In this document: positions 4,157 through 56,247 of the stretch, in pieces | Layout: each line of letters starts with the position of its first letter | Numbering within the stretch: position 1 is the stretch's first letter | DNA from: a virus | Lineage: Duplodnaviria > Caudoviricetes | IMG/VR virus record: IMGVR_UViG_3300022723_000184 | Coordinates: 96,001-160,000 of that record | Strand: one strand, 5' to 3' | Length of the DNA stretch: 64,000 bases | Position numbers and translations under genes: made by a program | The notes under the pieces: generated by a model | Told to the model about the DNA's origin: nothing | What the model saw: only the letters and a program-made list of their open reading frames with translations | Databases searched by the model: none

Positions 4157-4874
4157 GACACCCGATATCGATTTCGACCAGGCGTATACGTCGTGGGCCT
4201 CGGACAGGTCTCCGCAGGCCAACGCCACGATCCTGAAGGTTCTCGACCCGGTGATCAGCCAGGCGGTGCAGACACACGTCGGTACGAGCAACCCGCTGCT
4301 CAAGGCCCGGGCCCGGAAGATGACGCTCGGCGCCCTGGGCTCGTTTGACCCGAAGCGGGGCCGGCTCAAGAGCCACTTGTATTCGCAGCTCCAAGGCCTC
4401 AAGCGGCAGCATGCCAAGCAGCAGAGCATCTTCCGGGTGCCCGAGCGGCTGATGTTGGACCGCCGAGGTCTGAAGGCGGCGCAGCAGGAACTGGAAGACG
4501 AACTGGGGCGGGAGCCGACGGACCAGGAGCTGGCGACGCGCACCGGGTTCTCGGTCGACCGGATCTCTCGCATCCGGCAGTTCAGCCCCGCGATGAGCGA
4601 GGGCTTCTTCTCGACGGTGGGCGAGGGCGGCATGGTCCCACAGTCCACGAGCCCGATCAGCCAGCAATCGTCGTGGGTCCAGGTGGTGTACGACGACCTG
4701 GGCCCGCTCGACAAGAAGATCATGGAGTGGACGCTGGGCCTCAATGGCCAACCCCGACTCTCGAACCAGGAGATTGCTTTGAGGCTCAAGAGGTCCCCGG
4801 GCGCCATCAGCCAGCGAAAGGCGCTGATCCAGCAGATGCTTGACGAGGAGCAGGACCTTTCCCCTTTTCTATGA
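4149..4874 (+). CDS. RNA polymerase sigma-70 family factor (FliA/SigF-like)
   Basis: Region 3 motif ELGREPTDQELATRTGFSVDRI; region 4 HTH LSNQEIALRLKRSPGAISQRK; region 2-like helix. Confidence 0.85.
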   Translation: MPETPDIDFDQAYTSWASDRSPQANATILKVLDPVISQAVQTHVGTSNPLLKARARKMTLGALGSFDPKRGRLKSHLYSQLQGLKRQHAKQQSIFRVPERLMLDRRGLKAAQQELEDELGREPTDQELATRTGFSVDRISRIRQFSPAMSEGFFSTVGEGGMVPQSTSPISQQSSWVQVVYDDLGPLDKKIMEWTLGLNGQPRLSNQEIALRLKRSPGAISQRKALIQQMLDEEQDLSPFL

Positions 4875-4882
4875 AACTATGC

Positions 4883-4917
4883 CAGCTCGTCGGCTTAAAA
4901 GCGAGACAAGGCGAGAC
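4883..4917 (+). repeat. Degenerate solitary CRISPR repeat A (sense, upstream of RBS)
   Basis: CAGCTCGTCGGCTTAAAAGCGAGACAAGGCGAGAC resembles repeat CTGCTCATCGGTTTAGAAGATGAGAC; stem CTCGTC/GGCGAG + AC; 31/35 identical to the copy at 33550 (-). Confidence 0.75.
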
Positions 4918-7643: not shown

Positions 7644-7656
7644 AAAGTACTTTTTA
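7641..7656. promoter_or_regulatory. Palindromic operator-like motif TAAAAAGTACTTTTTA
   Basis: Perfect 16-bp AT-rich palindrome between a stop and a start; core recurs at 29933, 48099, 58170, 62496. Confidence 0.6.
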
Positions 7657-9815: not shown

Positions 9816-9888
9816 CGGCTAGAGTCACACCTTGTAAGCCGGTGCGCTGGCATGGTGACGCTAGTATAGCTAGATAAGGGGCTCAAGG

Positions 9889-26588: not shown

Positions 26589-27244
26589 AAACTACAACGA
26601 AACCAAAACACGGAAGATTTAACGACCTAGAAGGTCGCAAATTTTCTAGATGGGCCGTAGTAGGTTATGCAGGCAGGAAACTTACCGGGAAACAGATGAA
26701 GACTTTCTGGTGGTGCCGTTGCTCTTGCGGTACCACTCGGCAGGTGGAGGCGCAATCTCTGAGTTCCGACGGATCTAAGTCTTGCGGATGTTACGAACGC
26801 GAGGTTGCGGGCGAGCACAGGCGAGTACACGGCGGCACAGGAACAGTAGAGTACACAACCTGGAAAAGGCTTCGCAGCAGATGCAACAATCCAAAATCGC
26901 CTGACTGGAACAATTACGGGGGAAGAGGAATAAGGGTATGTGCCGAGTGGGACGCTATTGAAACCGGATTCTCCAAGTTCTTGCTCGATATGGGTCCCAG
27001 GCCAGGCGACTATTATTCCGTAGAGCGCAAGGACAACGACGGACCGTATAGCGCGGAAAACTGCGTATGGGCGACAAACTACGAACAGAGCCGAAACAGG
27101 CGAACTAACCACATGTTTACCTGGGAAGGTGAAACTCTGTGTCTGAAAGACTGGGCAAATCGTTTCAACATTAAATACGACAAGTTGCGTCGCAGGTTGT
27201 TAAAATACGGATGGCCTTTTTACCGGGCAATCACGACAGCGTAG
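26585..27244 (+). CDS. HNH homing endonuclease
   Basis: DLEGRKFSRWAV..WWCRCSCG..KSCGC; YGGRGIRVC.EW; SVERKDNDGPYSAENCVWA; low GC. Confidence 0.9.
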   Translation: MKTTTKPKHGRFNDLEGRKFSRWAVVGYAGRKLTGKQMKTFWWCRCSCGTTRQVEAQSLSSDGSKSCGCYEREVAGEHRRVHGGTGTVEYTTWKRLRSRCNNPKSPDWNNYGGRGIRVCAEWDAIETGFSKFLLDMGPRPGDYYSVERKDNDGPYSAENCVWATNYEQSRNRRTNHMFTWEGETLCLKDWANRFNIKYDKLRRRLLKYGWPFYRAITTA

Positions 27245-27261
27245 ACGCAAGGAGGCCAGGG

Positions 27262-27714
27262 ATGGCCAGAGGCATCAGGCTCACACGACACTCGGTCAAG
27301 AACGCCAACCACTGGCACCTCCGCGCCTTCCGGCTGCGGATCGAGGTGGCCGAGACCAGCCCCGACATGAGCCGATACGTCTTCGTCTACCGGCGGCACC
27401 CTCCGGACCCGTACACCGGCGAGGTCTTCGACGAGTTCTGCACCGTCGCGAGCCCCGTTGACATGAGCGAGTACCCGGTGGGCGCCCCCGACCCCAACCT
27501 GCCGTTCCCGTTCTTCCGAAAGGATTTCATTGAGGTCGACGTCCGGTCGCTCAAGGACTTCGACGAGACGTGGGACCTTGTCGTGAAGCAGGTCTGCGTC
27601 CTGACCCAGGCCCTCGACGACATGGAGAACCTGGTGCAGGACGAGGAGGCGGTATGCGGTACGCTGCCCAGCGGTTCCGAGTCAGTCTCCGAGTCCGAAT
27701 CGGTCTCGTCGTAG
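27262..27714 (+). CDS. Hypothetical protein
   Basis: RBS AAGGAGG; coding-like composition. Confidence 0.65.
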   Translation: MARGIRLTRHSVKNANHWHLRAFRLRIEVAETSPDMSRYVFVYRRHPPDPYTGEVFDEFCTVASPVDMSEYPVGAPDPNLPFPFFRKDFIEVDVRSLKDFDETWDLVVKQVCVLTQALDDMENLVQDEEAVCGTLPSGSESVSESESVSS

Positions 27715-27722
27715 GAGCGGCC

Positions 27723-28037
27723 ATGGCCACAGCAGCACACAAGCTGGTCGTGATCCAGGACAACACCCTGAAGAACATGGCCAAGCAAACGCGGTTCACC
27801 AAGGAGTTCCCGTTCCTTCAGTCGCTCAACCGACTGAACCAGGGCGCCCCGAAGCGAGGTTGCGGCGGGTGCCGATCGAGCAACAACCGGGTGTCCGAGG
27901 TATTCGCTGCGGCAAAGCGTGCGCTGGCCTCGCTGCCGGCCTCGAAGAAGCGGGTGCTCAAGGAGCTGCTTGGGGCTAAGAAGGTGCGGGTTACCTACCG
28001 TCAAGCAGGCGGGAAGACGGTCGAACTGACCTTTTAA
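27723..28037 (+). CDS. Hypothetical CxxC protein (paralog of 26229-26588)
   Basis: RBS AGGAG; GCGGC motif. Confidence 0.6.
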   Translation: MATAAHKLVVIQDNTLKNMAKQTRFTKEFPFLQSLNRLNQGAPKRGCGGCRSSNNRVSEVFAAAKRALASLPASKKRVLKELLGAKKVRVTYRQAGGKTVELTF

Positions 28038-28138
28038 AGTCACGCCTTTTGAACCGGTATGCCGGCATGTTGACACCAGTACGGCTACCTAAATAAACGT
28101 GTTTTTTGCGTCAAAATACATGCAGGCAAATTAGCCCG

Positions 28139-28174
28139 GTCTCATCTTCTAAACCGATGAGCAGGTATTAAGAT
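28139..28174 (-). CRISPR. Solitary CRISPR repeat C with leader end and -10 box
   Basis: 35/36 identical to the array repeat; preceded on - strand by TATAAT-ACCGAGG, like the array leader TATAAT-GCCGCGG. Confidence 0.92.
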
Positions 28175-28196
28175 CCTCGGTATTATAGCCGAACCG

Positions 28197-28227
28197 CACC
28201 CGGCACATCGCCGGGTGTTTTTCTTTT
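28197..28227 (+). terminator. Rho-independent terminator ending the structural operon
   Basis: CACCCGGC-ACATC-GCCGGGTG followed by TTTTTCTTTT. Confidence 0.8.
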
Positions 28228-28328
28228 CACCCCACCCCTCGTCCCGGTAGGCGTCCTGCTTGCCGGGGCTTTCGTCGCGGGCCTGTTGTCCGCGACTACT
28301 ACCACCTCCTCCAGAAGGGAAAATTGTC

Positions 28329-28613
28329 ATGATCGATCACAACCCCGTCCCCGCCATCCTCGTCCAGGACATCATCGACAACCAGGATCTGGGCCGTGCG
28401 ACCAACTTGGTCGCCTACGTCCGCAAGAATCTGCTGACCTCAGCCCGCGAAACAGGCCTCAGCAATATTGCGGTTGAGCGTTTAATCTCCAGCACGTTGG
28501 AACGGCTGACCCGTGGGGTGCGTGAGAATGCACCAAAAGACCGTCGATTTTTGTTCTGGGTCAACGACCGTCTCCTGCGGCGTGAGATCCTCGAAGGCCG
28601 GATCGCCGCGTAA
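28329..28613 (+). CDS. Hypothetical protein
   Basis: RBS GAAGGGA; 94 aa. Confidence 0.55.
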   Translation: MIDHNPVPAILVQDIIDNQDLGRATNLVAYVRKNLLTSARETGLSNIAVERLISSTLERLTRGVRENAPKDRRFLFWVNDRLLRREILEGRIAA

Positions 28614-28648
28614 GCGATCGGCATCGATCCTTCAGAGAAAGGGACAAC

Positions 28649-29113
28649 ATGTTCAAATTCGCACCGTTCCTGCTACTCGTCGTCTGTTCGGCGACACTGG
28701 CCGACCAGTCTGCCGACGAGTCACAGATCAACTGGAATCTGGTCTTCAAGTGCCTTCACATGAAGGAGGCCAGCGGTAAACTGAGCCCCGATCGTGGGGA
28801 CGACGGTAAGGCCCTTGGACCCTACCAGATCCACGAGGTTTACTGGAAGGACGCGCTCAAGGGTGATCCGTCGATCGGCGGGAAGTACGAGGACTGCAGC
28901 GACAAGGCCTACTCCGAGAAGGTGATCAAGGCTTACATGCGACGGTGGCTCGTGGTGAGCCGGGTCGGCAAGGTGATGACCTACGAACTCATTTGCCGGT
29001 CCCACAACGGGGGAGGCCCTAGGGCCTGGCCCAAGCACCCCGGCCACATGCGGTGGCTTCAGGCCTCCCAGGCGTACTGGGAGTCTGCGGTCTTCGATCC
29101 CCTGCGGAAATAG
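28649..29113 (+). CDS. Lysozyme-like (invertebrate-type/destabilase-like) muramidase with signal peptide
   Basis: EASG..GDDGKALGPYQIHEVYWKDA..HNGG motifs; hydrophobic N-terminus ending ATLA. Confidence 0.65.
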   Translation: MFKFAPFLLLVVCSATLADQSADESQINWNLVFKCLHMKEASGKLSPDRGDDGKALGPYQIHEVYWKDALKGDPSIGGKYEDCSDKAYSEKVIKAYMRRWLVVSRVGKVMTYELICRSHNGGGPRAWPKHPGHMRWLQASQAYWESAVFDPLRK

Positions 29114-29149
29114 ACCGAAAATCACAGGTCCCGATTGACCTTGATTGAC

Positions 29150-29185
29150 GACGCAATACCGGCTCATCAGCCGGGAAAACTAGGA
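29150..29185 (+). repeat. Possible decayed solitary repeat D
   Basis: GACGCAATACCGGCTCATCAG.. 22/36 identical to the repeat; 5' half kept, 3' stem arm lost. Confidence 0.4.
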
Positions 29186-29194
29186 GAAGCTATC

Positions 29195-29929
29195 ATGAAG
29201 ACTCTGATCATCGCTATCGCTGCCGTGCTGCTCGTGTGTCCGGCGTTCGGGCAGGAGCAGGAGACGAAACTTCAATCACTCGGCGCTCGTCGGGCCATGG
29301 TCCGCTACAAGGCCAAGGTCGCGAACGCAGAGCGCCTGTACAAGGCCGCACTGTTGCGAGCGGCGAAAGACCTGAAAGAAGAACTTCAAGCCGACCTCAT
29401 CAAGGTTACGAAGACCGGCAACCTGGAGTCCGCCAACCAGGTGAAGGCCGAGCTGGATCGCATTCAGGCGGAAATCGAAAAGATGACCAACCCTGACGCT
29501 AAGCCGAGCAATACGCCCAGCGACTCCGTTGAAATCACTGAGGGCGATCCGAATGTCAAAGTCGGGAAACTCAAGCCCACTCGCGACTGGTGGACGCTCG
29601 CCCAACTCAAAGCAGGTGACAAAGTTTACTTCCGGGCGGCTGGAACATGGGAGATCTTTGGCGTCGGCACCTGCGGGCCTGACGGCGGCCGTGGAAGCAA
29701 GGGCGACAAGAACGACCCGCTCCCCGGCGCTCCAGTGGGCGCAATTCTCGGCAGGCTTCCTGGCTCCACCGACGAGAAGCGGGCTACTGGCTTTGTGATT
29801 GGGCGCAGCGCCGTATTCACTGCCAAGGAGGATGGCGCGTTCCAGCTTCGCGTCAACAAGACGAGCGGCTACATCTACAAGTGCGATGGCGAACTGGCCT
29901 ACAAAGTCAAGGTCGTTCCAGCCAACTGA
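29195..29929 (+). CDS. Secreted protein: signal peptide, coiled coil, C-terminal PA-IL/LecA-like lectin fold
   Basis: KAGDKVYFRAAGTW..CGPDG..PLPGAPVGAILG..FVIG..GAFQLRVN pattern. Confidence 0.6.
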   Translation: MKTLIIAIAAVLLVCPAFGQEQETKLQSLGARRAMVRYKAKVANAERLYKAALLRAAKDLKEELQADLIKVTKTGNLESANQVKAELDRIQAEIEKMTNPDAKPSNTPSDSVEITEGDPNVKVGKLKPTRDWWTLAQLKAGDKVYFRAAGTWEIFGVGTCGPDGGRGSKGDKNDPLPGAPVGAILGRLPGSTDEKRATGFVIGRSAVFTAKEDGAFQLRVNKTSGYIYKCDGELAYKVKVVPAN

Positions 29930-29932
29930 TCC

Positions 29933-29946
29933 AAAAAGTACTTTTT
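29933..29946. promoter_or_regulatory. Palindromic motif AAAAAGTACTTTTT
   Basis: Second copy; abuts solitary repeat E. Confidence 0.6.
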
Positions 29947-29979
29947 AAAATACCCGCATATCGGCTTAAAAGATATGAC
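29944..29979 (+). repeat. Degenerate solitary CRISPR repeat E (sense, upstream of RBS)
   Basis: AAATACCCG-CATATC-GGCTTAAAA-GATATG-AC; 25/36 identical; two compensatory pairs. Confidence 0.85.
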
Positions 29980-29995
29980 GAAAGGGAGGCACACG

Positions 29996-30190
29996 ATGCT
30001 GTGCGCTACCGAAGGCAAGGCGTGCGTCCTCGTCGGATTCATCGCCACACTCGCAGGGATCATCGTGGCAGCGTACACCACGCCGCTAACCGGGATCGCC
30101 TGGGGCATGGTTGCTCTGCTGGGCCTGTTGGCCTGGGTGAACACCAAGCTCGAACCCGCGGACCGCGATGGTCCCGGGAAACGAAACTAA
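29996..30190 (+). CDS. Small two-TM membrane protein
   Basis: RBS GGGAGG; two hydrophobic segments; 64 aa. Confidence 0.6.
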   Translation: MLCATEGKACVLVGFIATLAGIIVAAYTTPLTGIAWGMVALLGLLAWVNTKLEPADRDGPGKRN

Positions 30191-30193
30191 ACC

Positions 30194-30297
30194 CAGGACC
30201 CTGGGTAGCCTCGTCATGTAGGACGAGCGAGAGAGCGACATGGCGTCGCGCATTACTCCCGCTACGTCCCTACCGACAAGGCTACCCCAGGGTCCTG
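30194..30297 (+). ncRNA. Candidate long rod-like RNA hairpin
   Basis: 18-bp closing stem CAGGACCCTGGGTAGCCT/AGGCTACCCCAGGGTCCTG plus inner stems GTAGGACG/CGTCCCTAC, AGCG/CGCT, GCGAC/GTCGC. Confidence 0.55.
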
Positions 30298-30310
30298 ACA
30301 ACCGCTCCTT

Positions 30311-30334
30311 AGCCCCAGAAGGGGGCTTTTCTTT
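30311..30334 (+). terminator. Rho-independent terminator
   Basis: AGCCCC-AGAAG-GGGGCT followed by TTTCTTT. Confidence 0.75.
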
Positions 30335-30395
30335 ACCTATTGCAGGGGCGGAGGTAGGATGAGAAGCTCAACCCTTTTCTGAAGGAGACCGCGTC

Positions 30396-30761
30396 GTGAA
30401 CACCCCCAACGCCGCACATCAGCAGAGCCTCCACGTGGTGGAGAAGGCCTGCAAGTTCGCCCCCGACATGTCGACGGGCACCATCGTGATCGAGTCGTCC
30501 AACGACGAGCAGTTCAACCTTGCGATCGAGGAGCTGCAGAGCGCCGCGGCCCGCAACCTGGCCGCAGGCTACGCCTCGTCGAAGGGCATGGGCGACGCTC
30601 GGATCAACGGGAACGTCGTCGGCCCCTACCCGATCAACGCCAAGGGCGTGCCCCTGGACCAGGTCAAGGACGAGGCCGGCAACACGCTGCCCCCGCAGCA
30701 CCCGGAGATGCAGCCGGCCGCCTACCGGGCGGACATCCCGGTCTGCCGCAAGCTCGTATGA
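30396..30761 (+). CDS. Hypothetical protein
   Basis: RBS GAAGGAG; GTG start. Confidence 0.65.
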   Translation: MNTPNAAHQQSLHVVEKACKFAPDMSTGTIVIESSNDEQFNLAIEELQSAAARNLAAGYASSKGMGDARINGNVVGPYPINAKGVPLDQVKDEAGNTLPPQHPEMQPAAYRADIPVCRKLV

Positions 30762-31252
30762 TCGAGCAGATCACGGCCAAAGAACTCAGGATACAAATGG
30801 AAGCGTTGCCCGAGCAACGCTTCTGTTTTTTGGTGAAGCACGTGCTGCAGGTCGACGACGGCATGGACTGCGAGTCGATGCAGTTGACCGACGTCCTCAA
30901 GCTGGGCCTGGCTGACTGGATGACCAAGCTCAGCGTGATGGACGGAGACAATCAGCAGAAGATCTTCGCCGAGTTCTCCGGCGCCTTTCAGAAGTACGTG
31001 CTGCAGAAGGCCGACACCGGCCGCTGGCCCGTGGCGCAGCTGGGAATCCTGGATTTCCGGTGGGTGGTCCTGAACCCCGTGTTCACCGACGGAAAGGGGT
31101 TCTACGACCTGCAGAAGGATCGCTGGACCAGGAGGCTACCGTACCACGCCCTCACGCTGCTATACTGTGACCTGTCGGCCCTGCTCAGCCGCCTGAGCGA
31201 TCGAATCGAACGGACTCGAAAAAAGGTCGAAGAGCTGACGGATGGACCCTAG
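30758..31252 (+). CDS. Hypothetical protein
   Basis: ATGA overlap; coding-like composition. Confidence 0.6.
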   Translation: MIEQITAKELRIQMEALPEQRFCFLVKHVLQVDDGMDCESMQLTDVLKLGLADWMTKLSVMDGDNQQKIFAEFSGAFQKYVLQKADTGRWPVAQLGILDFRWVVLNPVFTDGKGFYDLQKDRWTRRLPYHALTLLYCDLSALLSRLSDRIERTRKKVEELTDGP

Positions 31253-31970
31253 CGGCAACAACCTGCTGTACGACCAGTCGTTCCGGCGATCGTACCCCAA
31301 ACCCAAAAGCCCGAGATCCAGGCTGCAGCAACTGCTGCACAGCGAGGATACGTACGCGACGACACTGCTCGTCCTATTCGCTGACCGGTACGGGATGGAG
31401 GGCTTGGACTGGCACCCGGAGACCATCCGGCTCCAGCTCCAGAGCGACTTCGGGGTGCAGATCCCGAAGCACACGTTGGACAAGCTGATGGCCGCGATCG
31501 CAATCGTGACCACCGATGCGTTCTACAAGGACCTCACCAGGTTCATCGAGCTGTCGAACATCTTGGCCGGGGACGACTTTGACCCGACCGTGTTCGAGCC
31601 CGCGGACTCCGCCGAGATGGCATGGGCCGTGGCCGAGGCCACGCTGCTTTTTCCGCCGGAGGACGAGACGTTTTCAGACGAGATCAAGGGGTACGTCGGG
31701 TCCGTACTCCGCGACGAGGGCTACGTACGCCCGCCGAAAATCCTGAGCTTTGCGACCGACGCCGACTTCGCGTCCAAGGTCGAGCATGACTTCCAGGATG
31801 ACCCAGAGATGTTCCAGGCGGTATACGCCAACCAGTCGGCGAAGGCCGACGAGATCGACACCCTGGTCATGGACAACCTCCGTGAACTCTTCGGCCAGGT
31901 GACCTCCCTTCCCCTGAAAAACGGGGACACCAGCCAGATTGCCGAACGGATCAAGAAGACCATCGGCTGA
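31242..31970 (+). CDS. Hypothetical protein
   Basis: Overlaps previous gene; high GC3. Confidence 0.65.
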   Translation: MDPSGNNLLYDQSFRRSYPKPKSPRSRLQQLLHSEDTYATTLLVLFADRYGMEGLDWHPETIRLQLQSDFGVQIPKHTLDKLMAAIAIVTTDAFYKDLTRFIELSNILAGDDFDPTVFEPADSAEMAWAVAEATLLFPPEDETFSDEIKGYVGSVLRDEGYVRPPKILSFATDADFASKVEHDFQDDPEMFQAVYANQSAKADEIDTLVMDNLRELFGQVTSLPLKNGDTSQIAERIKKTIG

Positions 31971-32006
31971 CGGCTAAGAGAACAACCGAGCAACAAGGGG
32001 AACGCT

Positions 32007-32297
32007 ATGTGTGCGCCCACGCACGACAAGGCTCCCGGCGACGACGGCCTCTTCAAATTCGTTCGGGTGAACGGCGAGTACCGGTTCACCCTCGCGATGT
32101 TCGGAGGCCGCACCCACAAGTCCCTGGTCGGGGAAGGCGAGACCGCCGAATCGGCCGGGACCATGGACGTCCGGGAAGACTGTTGGAAGATGGCGGACTG
32201 GCGGTCAATGACGCTGGGCATCGGCGTAGACGGCCAGACGGACATAGACAACCTCACCGAGTTGCTCGGTAAACCGTACCGGGACAGGTGGAGTTGA
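32007..32297 (+). CDS. Hypothetical protein
   Basis: RBS AAGGGG. Confidence 0.6.
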   Translation: MCAPTHDKAPGDDGLFKFVRVNGEYRFTLAMFGGRTHKSLVGEGETAESAGTMDVREDCWKMADWRSMTLGIGVDGQTDIDNLTELLGKPYRDRWS

Positions 32298-32302
32298 CCT
32301 AG

Positions 32303-32572
32303 ATGAGCGCAGCCACGATACCCAACTACGGATGCTTCTCCGACGAAGCGAACCAGGACATCGACGAGATGATCGACGTTCTCATCGACAAGATCGAGGA
32401 CGGCGAGCTGACGACCCCTGAGAGACTCGTGGCCGAGATGGCCATGCGAATGAGTGAGATCGGCGACGGTGCGTGCGATACCGTTGTCAAAGAAACTGTG
32501 GCATACCACCTGCGAGATGCAATGGAAGAGCACAACATCCCTGAGTTCGGGATGCTCCTATACGGGTGGTGA
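32303..32572 (+). CDS. Hypothetical acidic protein
   Basis: Compact ORF in operon. Confidence 0.55.
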   Translation: MSAATIPNYGCFSDEANQDIDEMIDVLIDKIEDGELTTPERLVAEMAMRMSEIGDGACDTVVKETVAYHLRDAMEEHNIPEFGMLLYGW

Positions 32573-32635
32573 CCAGAGTCCAGGGCAGGACGCCCGCGAG
32601 GCCGTCCCAATGGACGGGAACAGGAAAGGGATGTA

Positions 32636-32875
32636 GTGCTAGTAGAAGGGCACATTCCACAGCAGAGCGTCGAGGAAGACGTCGAAGCAGCTACCCGCAG
32701 GGAAGCGGTCATCGAGTTCATGAAGCGCCACCCAGGTGTGTGCATAGAGAGCATCGATGGTGAAATGATCAGGGGTCTGTGCGAGAGCTGCAGCAAACCG
32801 ATCATGGAGAGCGACACCGAGTTCAACTACGACTCCGAAGGTGTCTATTGGTGTAAGGATGACTGCGAAACATGA
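32636..32875 (+). CDS. Hypothetical zinc-finger protein
   Basis: CESC..WCKDDC motifs. Confidence 0.55.
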   Translation: MLVEGHIPQQSVEEDVEAATRREAVIEFMKRHPGVCIESIDGEMIRGLCESCSKPIMESDTEFNYDSEGVYWCKDDCET

Positions 32876-33351
32876 GTCACGTTGTTGAGACCGAACCTGA
32901 CGGCCCTGACCAGGGCATCAGAGACCTATACGTGTTGAAGAAGGCCGCAGAACGCTGCGGCCTTGTCTTTAACGAGGGACAGACGCATTTCAGAACTTGG
33001 GCCGACGACCACAACGGTCGTCTGGTCGGGGACTGGCCGCTGCCTGAGGGCCGGACGCTGGACGACGTGGGTAAGTGCGCCCACGCCCTTAGCCTGCCGA
33101 ACGCCGCCAAGTCAGGCGTCGACAGCTACGAGATCGGCGTGGTGGAGTCTAAGAAACATCCGGGCACCTATTCGTTGATGTACGACTTCTGGCGTGGTGC
33201 CCTGGAGAAGAAGGCCGGCAACTGGTGCGAGGACCTGCTGATGTACTACCAGATGGAGGCCGCGAAGCTCGCGGCCGAGGAGCAGGACCATACGTACGTC
33301 GAAGAACAGCTGGCGGACGGGACCTTCGTGGCCCGGGTAGAGGTGAACTGA
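32872..33351 (+). CDS. DUF1257-like protein
   Basis: HALSL..YEIGV..YSLMYDFW pattern; synteny with DUF2997-like and Ycf46-like genes. Confidence 0.6.
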   Translation: MSHVVETEPDGPDQGIRDLYVLKKAAERCGLVFNEGQTHFRTWADDHNGRLVGDWPLPEGRTLDDVGKCAHALSLPNAAKSGVDSYEIGVVESKKHPGTYSLMYDFWRGALEKKAGNWCEDLLMYYQMEAAKLAAEEQDHTYVEEQLADGTFVARVEVN

Positions 33352-33549: not shown

Positions 33550-33588
33550 GTCTCGCCTTGTCTTGCCTTTAAGTCGGCGAGCTGCATT
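33550..33588 (-). repeat. Degenerate solitary repeat F with own -10 box (TAGAAT, 33595-33600)
   Basis: - strand AATGCAG-CTCGCC-GACTTAAAGGCAAGACAA-GGCGAG-AC; 31/35 identical to copy A. Confidence 0.75.
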
Positions 33589-40406: not shown

Positions 40407-41074
40407 AAGGGGTCGGATACGCGGCCTAACCAGTTTACCACCGTCGGGCCGAGGTGGTAGGCGGCGGTCTGCTCCATGTAGACCACGCGATCGCGTTCGG
40501 CCCACTGCTTCGCAAATTGGATGTCGCAGGTCTCGGCGGTCTGAAACCGTTCGGGGTACGGCTTCCGTTGCGAGGTGTGGTAGAGCTGGAAGTAGCCTCG
40601 GACCAGGCCGTGCTCGAAGGCGGCTGAGTCCGGGGGGATGTACGCCAGGCGGGTGTGATACGGGATGAACGGGTCGGCCTGCTTGATCGCATAGCGAGAG
40701 GGTACGACGAACCTTGGCGCCCCGTACAGCTTAGTAGGGTCAGGGACGACCCGGTGCAGTTGGTCGATCGTCTTCTCGGGGATCACGATGTCCGCGTCCA
40801 GGTGTAGTATCCAACCAGGGGACGCATCGAAGATGCCAGCGCACCGGCTTAGCAGGTGCGACAGTGCCTTGCCCTTGTTGAACGGTGCACCGCCCTCGTA
40901 GAAGGCGTCGGTGCGGACAAGAGAAAAGCCCAGGTCCTTGCAGACCTGGGCCGTGTGTTCGTCTTGGTTGTCGGTCACGACGACGACCCTGGGGGTCAGC
41001 CGCTTCCAGGACAGGCCGGCGATCTCCAGGGTGTCGGCGTAGTTGACGCTGACACTGACGATCGTCGGCTGCAT
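40403..41074 (-). CDS. Glycosyltransferase, GT-A fold
   Basis: VSVSVNYADTL..VVTDNQD..FNKGKAL..ILHLDADI. Confidence 0.8.
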   Translation of the reverse strand: MQPTIVSVSVNYADTLEIAGLSWKRLTPRVVVVTDNQDEHTAQVCKDLGFSLVRTDAFYEGGAPFNKGKALSHLLSRCAGIFDASPGWILHLDADIVIPEKTIDQLHRVVPDPTKLYGAPRFVVPSRYAIKQADPFIPYHTRLAYIPPDSAAFEHGLVRGYFQLYHTSQRKPYPERFQTAETCDIQFAKQWAERDRVVYMEQTAAYHLGPTVVNWLGRVSDPF

Positions 41075-53550: not shown

Positions 53551-53575
53551 CTGCTCATCGACAAGAGGATGAGAC
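53551..53575 (+). repeat. Degenerate solitary repeat H in the cas12m 5' UTR
   Basis: CTGCTCATCG-ACAAGAG-GATGAGAC: first 10 and last 8 nt identical to the repeat 3' part; exactly 20 nt before the ATG. Confidence 0.88.
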
Positions 53576-53595: not shown

Positions 53596-55365
53596 ATGGG
53601 ATTCAATAAGGACCCAGAGGCCCGCTGTGTGGTTTACCAGTACGGCGGCAAACATCCGACGGAAAACGAAGACGAAGCGATCAACCAGCTCGCCAAGGCG
53701 AACCGTTTTCGGAACCGGCTCGTTGAGTTGGAGCTACAACGACGTGAAGAATACCACGCTGCGTTCTCGGGTTACGGAGACCTGGCGGAGCCGTCAAATC
53801 AGCTTGAGACGCTCAACGAGCAGCTGACCGCTGCGGTGGCAGAACTTAAGGCGTGGAGACAATTGAACGGCACTCGAAGTCAACACCCGACGCTAACCCC
53901 GCAGATCGTTTCGCTACGGGCTCAGGCTCGCCAGCTACGGACACAGATCAAGTCGATCAAGGAAGCGGCCAAAGGCGATCCTACGGTGCAGGCGGCAATC
54001 GAAAAAGCAAACCAGCAGCACCGAGATCAGACCAAAGCTGCGTACGGCGCTGTAAGAGAATCGAACCCGGAGGCCGAGGACGCCAGAGACCGGCATGGGT
54101 TGTTCTGGGGAACGGCCCTCCTAGTTCAAAGGGCAGCGACACAGTTCCAGAAGGGCCCTCCCCCGAGGTACAAACGTTTCGACGGGACGGGAACTATCGG
54201 CGTGCAGCTGCAGAACGGGATGTCTGTGGAGGATCTGTTCACTCCGGGCGGCAGCGTCTGGATTGACCCCGTTCCTCCGGAGGCCTGGGACCCGCAGACG
54301 CCGAGAGGTCAAAGGCGAAAACTCGCAAGAACGATGCTACACATGCGGATCGGCGGGAAGCCGCAGGCCTGGGTGATTCTAAAGCTACCTGTCACCGTGC
54401 ACAGACCGCTGCCTGCAGGAAAACTTATCAAGTGGGTCACGGTCACTCGGCGTAAGTACGGTTCACAGGCGCGGTGGTATGTAAACGTCACGACGGATAT
54501 CAGGTCTGGTGGCACGCTTCACGATGATGTTGCGGCTGCCGGATTTGTGGGTGTCGACCTGGGTTTCAGGTTGTTCAAGCCCGCAGAAAGCAGCTCAGGC
54601 AAGCGATCGCTCCGAGTGGCTGTATGGGCCGGAGATGACGGGGAGACAGGCGAACTTCGCCTCGACGCGAGGTTTATGTCCTACATCTCAAAGGCCGACG
54701 GTTTGAGGTCGATCCGGGACAAGCGGCTTGATCAGATCAGAGCGGCGCTGCTTCCGTTGTGTGACGAGGCGGGTACGCCGGAGTGGTGGAAAGACGACAC
54801 TCAACACATGGCCAAATGGAGGTCTCCTCGAAAGCTGTATCACTTGCTCCACAAGTGGAAAGACAACAGGTGGGATGGCGACAAAACGCTGTTCGATCTG
54901 TTGGTTAAGTGGGTAGTTCAGGACCGTCACCTCCACGTGTGGGAAGCCAACAATCGCCGAAAAGTAGCGGCTCGTCGCCTGGACATGTACCGGAACCTGG
55001 CGGCCTCTTTGAGGCGCAAGTACGCGGTTATCGGGATCGAAGACATCGATTGGCGGATCTGGAGCAAGTTGGCCCTGCCCGAAGAAGAGGAGACCAAGTC
55101 AAAGAAGTTCCGTGTTCAAAAGAAACATGCGGCGGTCGGTCTGCTTGCAGAGACGCTGTCGAATTGCGGGGCACAGGTTGTACGTTTGGATCCCGCTTAC
55201 ACGACGAAGCGGTGCAACGCCTGCGGCAAGATCACCGAATTTGACGCTGACCGGCACCTGCGACATACGTGCGAACATTGCCATGCGGAGTGGGACCAAG
55301 ACTACAATGCGGCAAAGAACCTGCAAGACATGGCGAGCGGCAACGCCGTAACGCAAACCGCGTAG
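53596..55365 (+). CDS. cas12m: Type V-M CRISPR effector Cas12m-like (589 aa)
   Basis: LFWGT, RYKRFDGTGTIGVQLQ, VHRPLP, KWRSPRKL, EANNRRK motifs as in Cas12m; RuvC D321/E482/D569; CNAC..CEHC zinc finger; adjacent array. Confidence 0.88.
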   Translation: MGFNKDPEARCVVYQYGGKHPTENEDEAINQLAKANRFRNRLVELELQRREEYHAAFSGYGDLAEPSNQLETLNEQLTAAVAELKAWRQLNGTRSQHPTLTPQIVSLRAQARQLRTQIKSIKEAAKGDPTVQAAIEKANQQHRDQTKAAYGAVRESNPEAEDARDRHGLFWGTALLVQRAATQFQKGPPPRYKRFDGTGTIGVQLQNGMSVEDLFTPGGSVWIDPVPPEAWDPQTPRGQRRKLARTMLHMRIGGKPQAWVILKLPVTVHRPLPAGKLIKWVTVTRRKYGSQARWYVNVTTDIRSGGTLHDDVAAAGFVGVDLGFRLFKPAESSSGKRSLRVAVWAGDDGETGELRLDARFMSYISKADGLRSIRDKRLDQIRAALLPLCDEAGTPEWWKDDTQHMAKWRSPRKLYHLLHKWKDNRWDGDKTLFDLLVKWVVQDRHLHVWEANNRRKVAARRLDMYRNLAASLRRKYAVIGIEDIDWRIWSKLALPEEEETKSKKFRVQKKHAAVGLLAETLSNCGAQVVRLDPAYTTKRCNACGKITEFDADRHLRHTCEHCHAEWDQDYNAAKNLQDMASGNAVTQTA

Positions 55366-55502: not shown

Positions 55503-56247
55503 ATCGTAATACCTGCTCATCGGTTTAGAAGATGAGACGCGGCATTGATTGCCTTCTTGAGTTGCTGCTCCAACATCGTAATACCTGCTCATCGGTTTAG
55601 AAGATGAGACATCGCCGCATCGCTGGAAGCGGGCGTGGCGTCGGCGGATCGTAATACCTGCTCATCGGTTTAGAAGATGAGACCTTTCTCTGTGTCCGAG
55701 ATAACGGGGTCACTAATGTCATCGTAATACCTGCTCATCGGTTTGGAAGATGAGACAAGCATCCGAGCAGCCGCTACAAGGACAAGATCGGCATCGTAAT
55801 ACCTGCTCATCGGTTTAGAAGATGAGACTAGTCGGGCAATTGCTCGAACGGCACAGAGATATCGTCATCGTAATACCTGCTCATCGGTTTAGAAGATGAG
55901 ACGCTTACCGGTGGCCGAGGCCAAGGCGCGATGGAGAACATCGTAATACCTGCTCATCGGTTTAGAAGATGAGACACGGTGGATCCGGTCGAGCGGCTGA
56001 TCCTTCACATCATCGTAATACCTGCTCATCGGTTTAGAAGATGAGACCCGGTGATCGACGCGGTCCTCGAGAACGCCGAGGACATCGTAATACCTGCTCA
56101 TCGGTTTAGAAGATGAGACAAGTGGATCAGGTTCTTCTCATCGTAATACCTGCTCATTGGTTTAGAAGATGAGACGCGGACTGCCCCGAGATGCGGCGCC
56201 GGCTGTGGGTAATCGTAATACCTGCTCATCGGTTTGGAAGATGAGAC
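55503..56247 (+). CRISPR. CRISPR array: 11 x 36-nt repeats ATCGTAATACCTGCTCATCGGTTTAGAAGATGAGAC, 10 spacers
   Basis: Repeats start at 55503, 55575, 55648, 55721, 55793, 55867, 55940, 56012, 56084, 56140, 56212; spacers 36-38 nt except spacer 9 (20 nt); 3' hairpin CTCATC/GATGAG + AC. Confidence 0.99.

Follow-up and report, generated by a model that had tools for sequence, protein, structure and literature searches.

A mimic of the phage's own Cas12m CRISPR repeat at the ribosome-binding site of a small membrane-protein gene in a jumbo phage

Described crRNA look-alikes and the phage locus

To our knowledge, the regulatory crRNA look-alikes (CreA, CreR, long tracrRNA and scaRNA) all guide Cas proteins to DNA, and the known solitary repeats of phages are all decoys against the Cas proteins of the host. 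At the ribosome-binding site, a protein bound to a hairpin blocks initiation, as is known for the MS2 coat protein on the replicase start and for T4 RegA. A small size, a charged tail and two transmembrane segments are typical of class II holins, which are known alongside pinholins with SAR endolysins, and the lambda S gene has the sdi stem-loop and dual starts.

CreA is a separate small RNA that consists of repeat, spacer and repeat (Li et al. 2021, summarised in bioRxiv 10.1101/2024.01.05.574328). Its spacer partly matches the PAM-flanked toxin promoter, which is repressed at the level of transcription, and the module resides inside the cas locus (bioRxiv 10.1101/2024.01.05.574328). CreR directs Cas12a to promoter DNA with a TTTA PAM (bioRxiv 10.1101/2023.03.10.532045). 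Racrs are small stand-alone RNAs that mimic host repeats and poison the Cas complexes of the host (PMC10651486; review PMC11656645). In the type V-M scaffold, the 36-nt repeat forms a 6-bp stem closed by G.A with a loop of 8-9 nt, and about 17 nt of the guide are engaged. The 5' segment pairs into the loop (ACC or GCC with GGU or GGC) and the 5' end is dispensable (PMC10442227, PMC11013384).

The phage sequence was taken from an IMG/VR record that is a single sequence of 201,946 bp, about 90% complete and with 62% G+C. The phage is a lytic-looking jumbo phage. The window, which is the whole stretch of 64,000 nucleotides that was analysed, corresponds to bases 96001-160000 of this record. Rfam and tRNA scans of the window gave no matches. 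Besides the database matches listed in Table 1, the cas12m product has a Cas12f1-like TNB domain (Pfam), and on these matches the cas12m of the phage is genuine. Judged by the HMM score, the protein is about 30% identical to Cas12m2. It differs from Cas12m2 in that D, E and D are retained in the three RuvC motifs (VGVDLG, IGIEDID and WDQDYNAAKN; read from DNA). Since these residues are kept, it is not established that the phage Cas12m is 'binding only' like Cas12m2 and GoCas12m (PMC10442227, PMC11013384), and its activities may differ from those of the binding-only orthologues.

A diverged copy of the array repeat, which we call E, precedes a gene for a 64-aa protein (Table 1). As in CreTA and CreAP, a degenerate repeat would tie the Cas effector to a small, possibly harmful product that is released when the effector is lost or inhibited. 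However, E is a single repeat copy located in cis in an mRNA leader, with no second pseudo-repeat downstream. None of the 27 guide-position segments of the genome matches the E cassette locus with an 8-nt seed and at least 13/18 positions, and E ends at 29979 whereas cas12m starts at 53596, 23.6 kb apart. As three features that define CreTA/CreAP are lacking, the cassette is not a member of this group. The likeness to CreR, including its type V-A form, is that degenerate repeats of a type V single effector would be used for regulation and not for immunity, and that competition by crRNAs would tune the effect. CreR is directed to DNA, whereas E lacks a DNA target and its action would be on the ribosome-binding site of the RNA that carries it. 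With the Racrs, E has in common that a solitary repeat copy in a phage genome mimics a crRNA scaffold, but E mimics the phage's own array and is followed by a ribosome-binding site and an ORF with no terminator, which places it outside this class. Compared to the type V-M scaffold, E has two swapped stem pairs, an A.C mismatch in the pair of the 5' segment and a ribosome-binding site that replaces the spacer.

The E cassette would work like a translational repressor with an operator hairpin, here made of a CRISPR scaffold, whereas the natural examples MS2 coat protein and T4 RegA involve neither a CRISPR effector nor a repeat mimic. That a Cas RNA-binding protein at the translation start can occlude the ribosome has been demonstrated with engineered Cas6f (PMC13478208); this synthetic system uses antisense guides to act in trans, whereas E would act in cis. 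Cas12m on a phage has been described in one report, which does not contain leader elements like E (bioRxiv 10.64898/2026.09.14.751636). The cassette is not demonstrably a type I toxin locus. A small hydrophobic peptide is present, with 64 aa and two hydrophobic segments. For an antisense antitoxin RNA that would pair with the mRNA, a sigma-70-type scan of the minus strand from 27600 to 30500 found no promoter-like site. The cassette is best filed among the crRNA-like regulatory elements, as a new variant.

Table 1. Features of the cassette, its operon and the repeat family (positions of the window unless marked as genome)
Feature	Position	Strand	Description
Operon gene 1			94-aa protein
Operon gene 2, lysozyme	28649-29113	+	i-type (destabilase-family); PF05497 3.7e-8; PDB 8bbu lysozyme 1e-9
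Decayed repeat copy	29150-29188	+	heads the 244-aa gene of the lysozyme operon; 10.2 bits, not significant alone
Operon gene 3	29195-29929	+	244-aa protein; N-terminal signal/anchor, long coiled coil, C-terminal beta-rich domain
Palindrome AAAAAGTACTTTTT	29933-29946	.	perfect, 14 bp; overlaps the degenerate 5' tail of E by 3 nt
Repeat mimic E	29944-29979	+	diverged copy of the phage's 36-nt Cas12m CRISPR repeat, predicted to be structurally intact; leader copy of the 64-aa ORF
Hairpin of E	29957-29962 with 29972-29977		stem with 9-nt loop, closing G...A, AC tail
Guide-position segment	29980-29995	+	16 nt; Shine-Dalgarno GGGAGG at 29984-29989, 6 nt before ATG 29996
Operon gene 4, 64-aa ORF	29996-30190	+	two predicted TM helices, charged C-terminal tail; one gene after the lysozyme
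Rod-like hairpin	30192-30297	+	106 nt, near-perfect, between stop codon and terminator; -66.6 kcal/mol
Intrinsic terminator	30311-30335	+	6-bp GC-rich stem (30311-30327) and T-run; closes the operon
Leader copy	4873	+	158-aa protein
Leader copy	5887	+	baseplate J-like protein
Leader copy	53551-53575	+	cas12m; degenerate, 14.8 bits, E-value 0.036
Leader copy	genome 72751	+	119-aa protein
Leader copy	genome 174582	+	UvsX-like recombinase
cas12m	53596-55365	+	589 aa; PDB 23vw Cas12m 5.9e-67; PDB 8hhl Cas12m2 1.5e-26
CRISPR array	55503-56247	+	36-nt repeat, 11 copies; the repeat family stems from it

The repeat mimic E and the other copies in the genome

E and the array repeat are identical at 25/36 positions. 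The 11 substitutions are located in the first eight bases, which form the 5' tail, in columns that are variable in the family, or in two compensated pairs. The array stem CTCATC/GATGAG is CATATC/GATATG in E, and the exchange of TC to AT on the 5' arm and of GA to AT on the 3' arm swaps two adjacent pairs on both sides with the pairing kept. Both the identity and the compensated exchange had been put forward in the original prediction and are read directly from the sequence. All family-invariant columns are retained in E, among them the AC end and the two stem-flanking bases G and A.

To score E independently, the covariance model R1 was trained on 10 other copies with E left out. E reached 30.2 bits (E-value 2.7e-6 for the window, 8.5e-6 for the whole genome). 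The copy at 40826 scored slightly better with 32.8 bits, so that the earlier description of E as the best-conserved degenerate repeat holds only approximately. When 16 distinct repeat versions were aligned, 96.5% of the hairpin cells were paired, compared to only 23-44% in slid controls. Changes on both sides were observed in 5/6 stem pairs, and the covariation score was reached by none of 500 shuffles. Covariation in the family also extends to a pair that joins the 5' segment to the loop (GC in 10, AU in 4 and GU in 1), and E alone is unpaired here, with A.C. The 6-bp stem, the closing G...A and the AC 3' end of E agree with the description of the Cas12m2 scaffold, where the stem is closed by a G.A pair and the 5' tail of the repeat from -36 to -30 is disordered (PMC10442227). 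We conclude from these results that E is a genuine mimic of the phage's own Cas12m repeat, with a predicted structure that is intact.

The genome contains at least 17 non-array repeat copies. When the seven plus-strand copies were inspected, six ended 11-24 nt before a Shine-Dalgarno sequence and a start codon (Table 1; the recombinase start was added to this count by hand). This placement is expected for a random plus-strand position in 1.7% of the cases, and P for 6/7 is about 1.8e-10. E is one instance of a genome-wide design and not the private device of a toxin gene. The phage places mimics of its own repeat over ribosome-binding sites, among them those of cas12m and of the membrane protein beside the lysozyme. 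The copy ahead of cas12m suggests autogenous control. Because five other genes including cas12m share the geometry of E, a link from Cas12m to the leader is the most economical reading. The copies on the minus strand run antisense to plus-strand genes, and a box resembling TATAAT or TATACT is located 7 nt upstream of each.

Repeat copies can decay, as is seen in the operon of E itself. The copy at 29150-29188 is identical at 26/36 positions to the 5222-type variant (counted by hand) and has lost its 3' arm and thus the hairpin. The 244-aa gene now uses the 3' end of this copy as its ribosome-binding site, AGGAG. Such decay would also be in line with E being a relic, left when a repeat cassette inserted at the gene boundary, with no role of Cas12m now or with no more than the effect of a generic RNA structure close to the ribosome-binding site. 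The alteration of E at 11/36 positions, the A.C mismatch in the covarying tertiary pair and the lack of demonstrable conservation in other genomes fit this explanation. However, both changed stem pairs of E are compensated, all family-invariant unpaired positions are kept, and the leader placement of the six plus-strand copies is far from random. Since copies can decay and the stem of E is nevertheless compensated, we favour selection on E and regard the relic as unlikely.

Two successive genes of the operon, those of the 244-aa and of the 64-aa protein, carry repeat-derived leaders. A duplicated 3' arm of the GCGAGAC-AAG-GCGAGAC type is common to the copies at 4873-4917 and 33550-33584(-), which suggests that one was derived from the other, despite the distance of 28.6 kb and the opposite strands.

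As had been stated before, the 14-bp palindrome runs into the repeat, with an overlap of 3 nt. The palindrome, which had been called operator-like, is not private to the 64-aa gene. The palindrome is present in 14 copies genome-wide, 11 of them with the exact 12-nt core, whereas any other 12-nt palindrome occurs at most three times. In the window, the core was found 5 times, compared to 0.00 expected from window shuffles. Most copies are found where two plus-strand genes meet; in many of them the palindrome includes the TAA stop, and the next start follows after a few bases. With 14 copies in the genome, a private operator of the 64-aa gene is rejected, and the palindrome may be a promoter, an operator or a site of RNA processing. 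Two other copies abut the promoters of minus-strand repeat units. The consensus is about gATCTAAAAAGTACTTTTTAGATc and AT-rich; the copies are found at 7644, 29935, 48101 and 62498 of the window and at ten more sites, with a spacing of 7-26 kb.

A lead for the 5' end of the transcript is the sequence TACTTT. If it is a -10 box with the 7-nt spacing of the crRNA promoters, the start would be at A29952, the first ordered base of the scaffold. No terminator is found between the upstream gene and E, so that read-through is equally possible as a start at A29952.

Relatives of the locus were searched in several ways. The DNA from 27000 to 33000 had no match among GenBank phages, no useful relatives were obtained from IMG/VR when loci were searched by pattern with Cas12m, the 264-aa protein and the 507-aa ATPase, and no relative carrying the cassette was found. 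In contig L011, which encodes a 46% identical Cas12m, only an array and no dispersed copies were seen in the +/-10 kb examined. In Virus Rctr197k (197 kb), a search that allowed up to 3 mismatches detected only the array. R1 lacks sensitivity for the Rctr197k repeat, and a generic hairpin-plus-AC scan of this genome was no better than with shuffles. The absence of dispersed copies in L011 and Rctr197k is therefore weak evidence. The palindrome was not found in either of them. The Cas12m-like gene of Rctr197k (KX853510.1, 110754-112317) is 33% identical and annotated only as 'similar to transposase'. Its array of about 20 repeats has the same stem-loop-AC architecture as the phage array.

The 64-aa gene and its putative lysis operon

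The reading frame of the 64-aa protein reaches +0.50 bits per codon in its coding score, compared to at most 0.13 in the other five frames. This score is within the range of the small genes of the genome and above that of cas12m. As had been predicted, the protein shows two hydrophobic segments by hydropathy, peaking at about residues 9-27 and 31-48. Apart from the protein itself, no homologue was found in a 90%-clustered collection (word-based search) or among 1.84 billion representatives (exhaustive HMMER search). A match to a 1219-aa protein (E-value 5e-4) was disregarded because it had no matched stretch. No family was found at the level of Pfam, PHROG or NCBIfam, the best being an unnamed PHROG with an E-value of 0.04. 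The look-alikes in a protein atlas were unnamed small viral proteins below a useful score.

The gene is the last of four in a transcription unit that is bounded by the terminators at 28196-28218 and 30311-30335. The lysozyme encoded by the second gene is of the secreted type, with an N-terminal signal or SAR-like segment. When the genome was searched with four common endolysin families, it was the sole match. In a single-sequence fold of the 244-aa protein, the helices 2-98 were confident and the rest had a low pLDDT. This protein has no family match, and a likeness of its C-terminal domain to PA-IL lectins was considered and dropped since Pfam did not confirm it. Neither an o-spanin lipoprotein nor a spanin pair was seen near the operon.

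The small size, the two transmembrane helices and the charged C-terminal tail of the 64-aa protein are traits of class II holins and pinholins, and its gene is in the same terminator-bounded unit as the endolysin-type gene, with one gene between. The locus also resembles lambda S and other holin genes in that a two-TM protein is encoded near a secreted muramidase, a hairpin precedes the start and a second in-frame ATG is present upstream. In contrast to the holins, there is no sequence match to a family, the distance between the two starts is 7 codons, the gene is one gene away from the lysozyme and no spanin pair is seen. The lack of homology, the intervening gene and the missing lipoprotein spanin count against a holin. 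From size, topology and context, the 64-aa protein may be a holin, a tentative assignment for which the prospects are somewhat short of even. The upstream start is ATG 29975 in the 3' stem arm of E. It would add the seven residues MTKGRHT, three of which are basic. This recalls the dual starts of holin and antiholin and may be due to chance, which is about 1 in 4.

Downstream of the gene, the predicted long hairpin and terminator were both found, the former as a 106-nt rod (Table 1). The rod matches no Rfam family and has no second copy in the genome. Folding of the whole cassette gave a z of -6.0. In the minimum-energy fold, the Shine-Dalgarno sequence is paired over 6 bp with CUCCUU just after the rod.

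The original prediction had considered the cassette as an addiction module by analogy with CreTA and type I toxin loci. The 64-aa protein would then be a membrane toxin that is silenced by Cas12m, and the loss or inhibition of Cas12m, e.g. by the anti-CRISPR of a rival, would kill the cell. Protein toxins that are repressed by CRISPR exist (CreP; bioRxiv 10.1101/2024.01.05.574328). A small hydrophobic protein, a heavily structured mRNA, the possible weak pairing of the Shine-Dalgarno sequence with the 3' end and a putative Cas-binding element over the ribosome-binding site would be in agreement with such a module. However, neither a separate crRNA-like gene for an antitoxin RNA nor a PAM-flanked partial match to a promoter was found, and cas12m is distant by the 23.6 kb given above. 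The sister copies head ordinary genes, such as those for the baseplate J-like protein and the recombinase, and not toxins. The cassette is part of a lysis-type operon in a lytic-looking jumbo phage, and a virulent phage has no obvious gain from an addiction to cas12m. The addiction module is therefore not supported, and we consider it very unlikely. The timed lysis switch, which had been named as the other option, fits better to the context because the gene closes the operon with the sole detected endolysin-family gene.

Possible action of Cas12m at the leader

Exactly 16 nt separate the end of E from the ATG at 29996, and they hold the GGGAGG, which agrees with the predicted identity of the guide segment and the ribosome-binding site. 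In Cas12m2, about 17 nt after the scaffold form the duplex between guide and target (PMC10442227). In our proposal, the leader RNA would fold into the Cas12m crRNA scaffold and would be bound in cis by the phage Cas12m, the product of cas12m being the presumed binding partner of E. The next about 17 nt, which are the guide in a crRNA, are here the Shine-Dalgarno sequence and the start codon, and the bound Cas12m would hide them both. This would block the access of the 30S subunit and repress the translation of the 64-aa protein. We infer this binding, and repression as its direction, from the architecture of the leader. Repression is favoured at E by extension from the copy in the cas12m leader, which suggests negative feedback. 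In the Cas12m literature considered, no report of Cas12m binding to an mRNA-embedded scaffold was found. That E functions as a Cas12m binding site in the leader or intercistronic spacer of the two-TM gene and that the ribosome-binding site is occluded in cis is our preferred reading of the sequence, and we give it a nearly even prospect.

Synthesis of the membrane protein would depend on the Cas12m that is free of crRNAs, other leader copies or inhibitors. The repression would be relieved once crRNAs, other leaders or an inhibitor occupy Cas12m. The target would most probably be a holin-type lysis protein. In this case, the pool of free Cas12m would determine when lysis occurs, or whether it occurs prematurely once the anti-CRISPR of a rival disables Cas12m. 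Taken as a whole, the proposal that the phage Cas12m is a sequence-specific translational repressor acting through leader mimics, and that it gates a holin-type protein through E, is rather unlikely.

Immediately 5' of the scaffold, Cas12m may also cut the leader in the way it cuts pre-crRNA. Cas12m orthologues are known to process pre-crRNA upstream of the scaffold (PMC11013384, PMC10442227). The effect at E, as read from the sequence, could equally be processing or stabilisation instead of repression. The cut would then free the 64-aa cistron and Cas12m would guard the new 5' end, with more or longer synthesis of the protein or a neutral outcome. E is probably part of a polycistronic RNA, since no terminator precedes it, and the strong 3' rod and the terminator would guard the other end. 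However, after the cut Cas12m would be expected to remain on the scaffold with the ribosome-binding site in the guide channel, which favours occlusion, and the copy in the cas12m leader is more sensible as a negative feedback. We regard processing as the main effect as quite unlikely and continue with occlusion as the preferred reading.

If Cas12m binds to the leaders, a CRISPR effector would also regulate phage development at the level of translation. A CRISPR protein that targets DNA would then have a natural regulatory role that is exerted in cis on RNA. The system is simple to test, with one protein, one hairpin of 30 nt and one reporter, and it would provide a compact natural part for the control of translation. 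If Cas12m does not bind, the cassette still records the spread and the decay of CRISPR repeats within a phage genome.

An RNA headed by E might also load Cas12m and send it to the DNA of the host or of a rival phage that resembles the segment with the Shine-Dalgarno sequence and the ATG. E has the full crRNA architecture for such a guide in trans, and promoter-driven stand-alone repeat units are present elsewhere in the genome. The segment, however, serves as ribosome-binding site and start codon, which fixes its sequence and prevents it from being a free guide. A second site with its 8-nt seed and at least 13/18 matches was not found in the phage genome. At its own locus, the repeat end GAC adjoins the segment, as it does in the array. 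The absence of a second target and the GAC at the own locus make DNA targeting unlikely and leave a role at the level of RNA. The two other guides that were searched, array spacer 5 and the guide of the stand-alone unit at 28139, had no exact 20-nt match in viral contigs, so that no PAM could be inferred. A guide acting in trans is thus extremely unlikely, and occlusion in cis is still preferred.

The guide-position segments of the stand-alone units had no second match in the phage genome, and a seed-anchored scan for self-targets gave no convincing hit. The units at 9824(-), 28139(-), 28039(-), 33550(-), 40027(-) and 40826(+) have a TATAAT- or TATACT-like box at 7 nt upstream and are antisense to the local genes. 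The stand-alone unit at genome position 163592(-) has a terminator of its own, about 25 nt further on.
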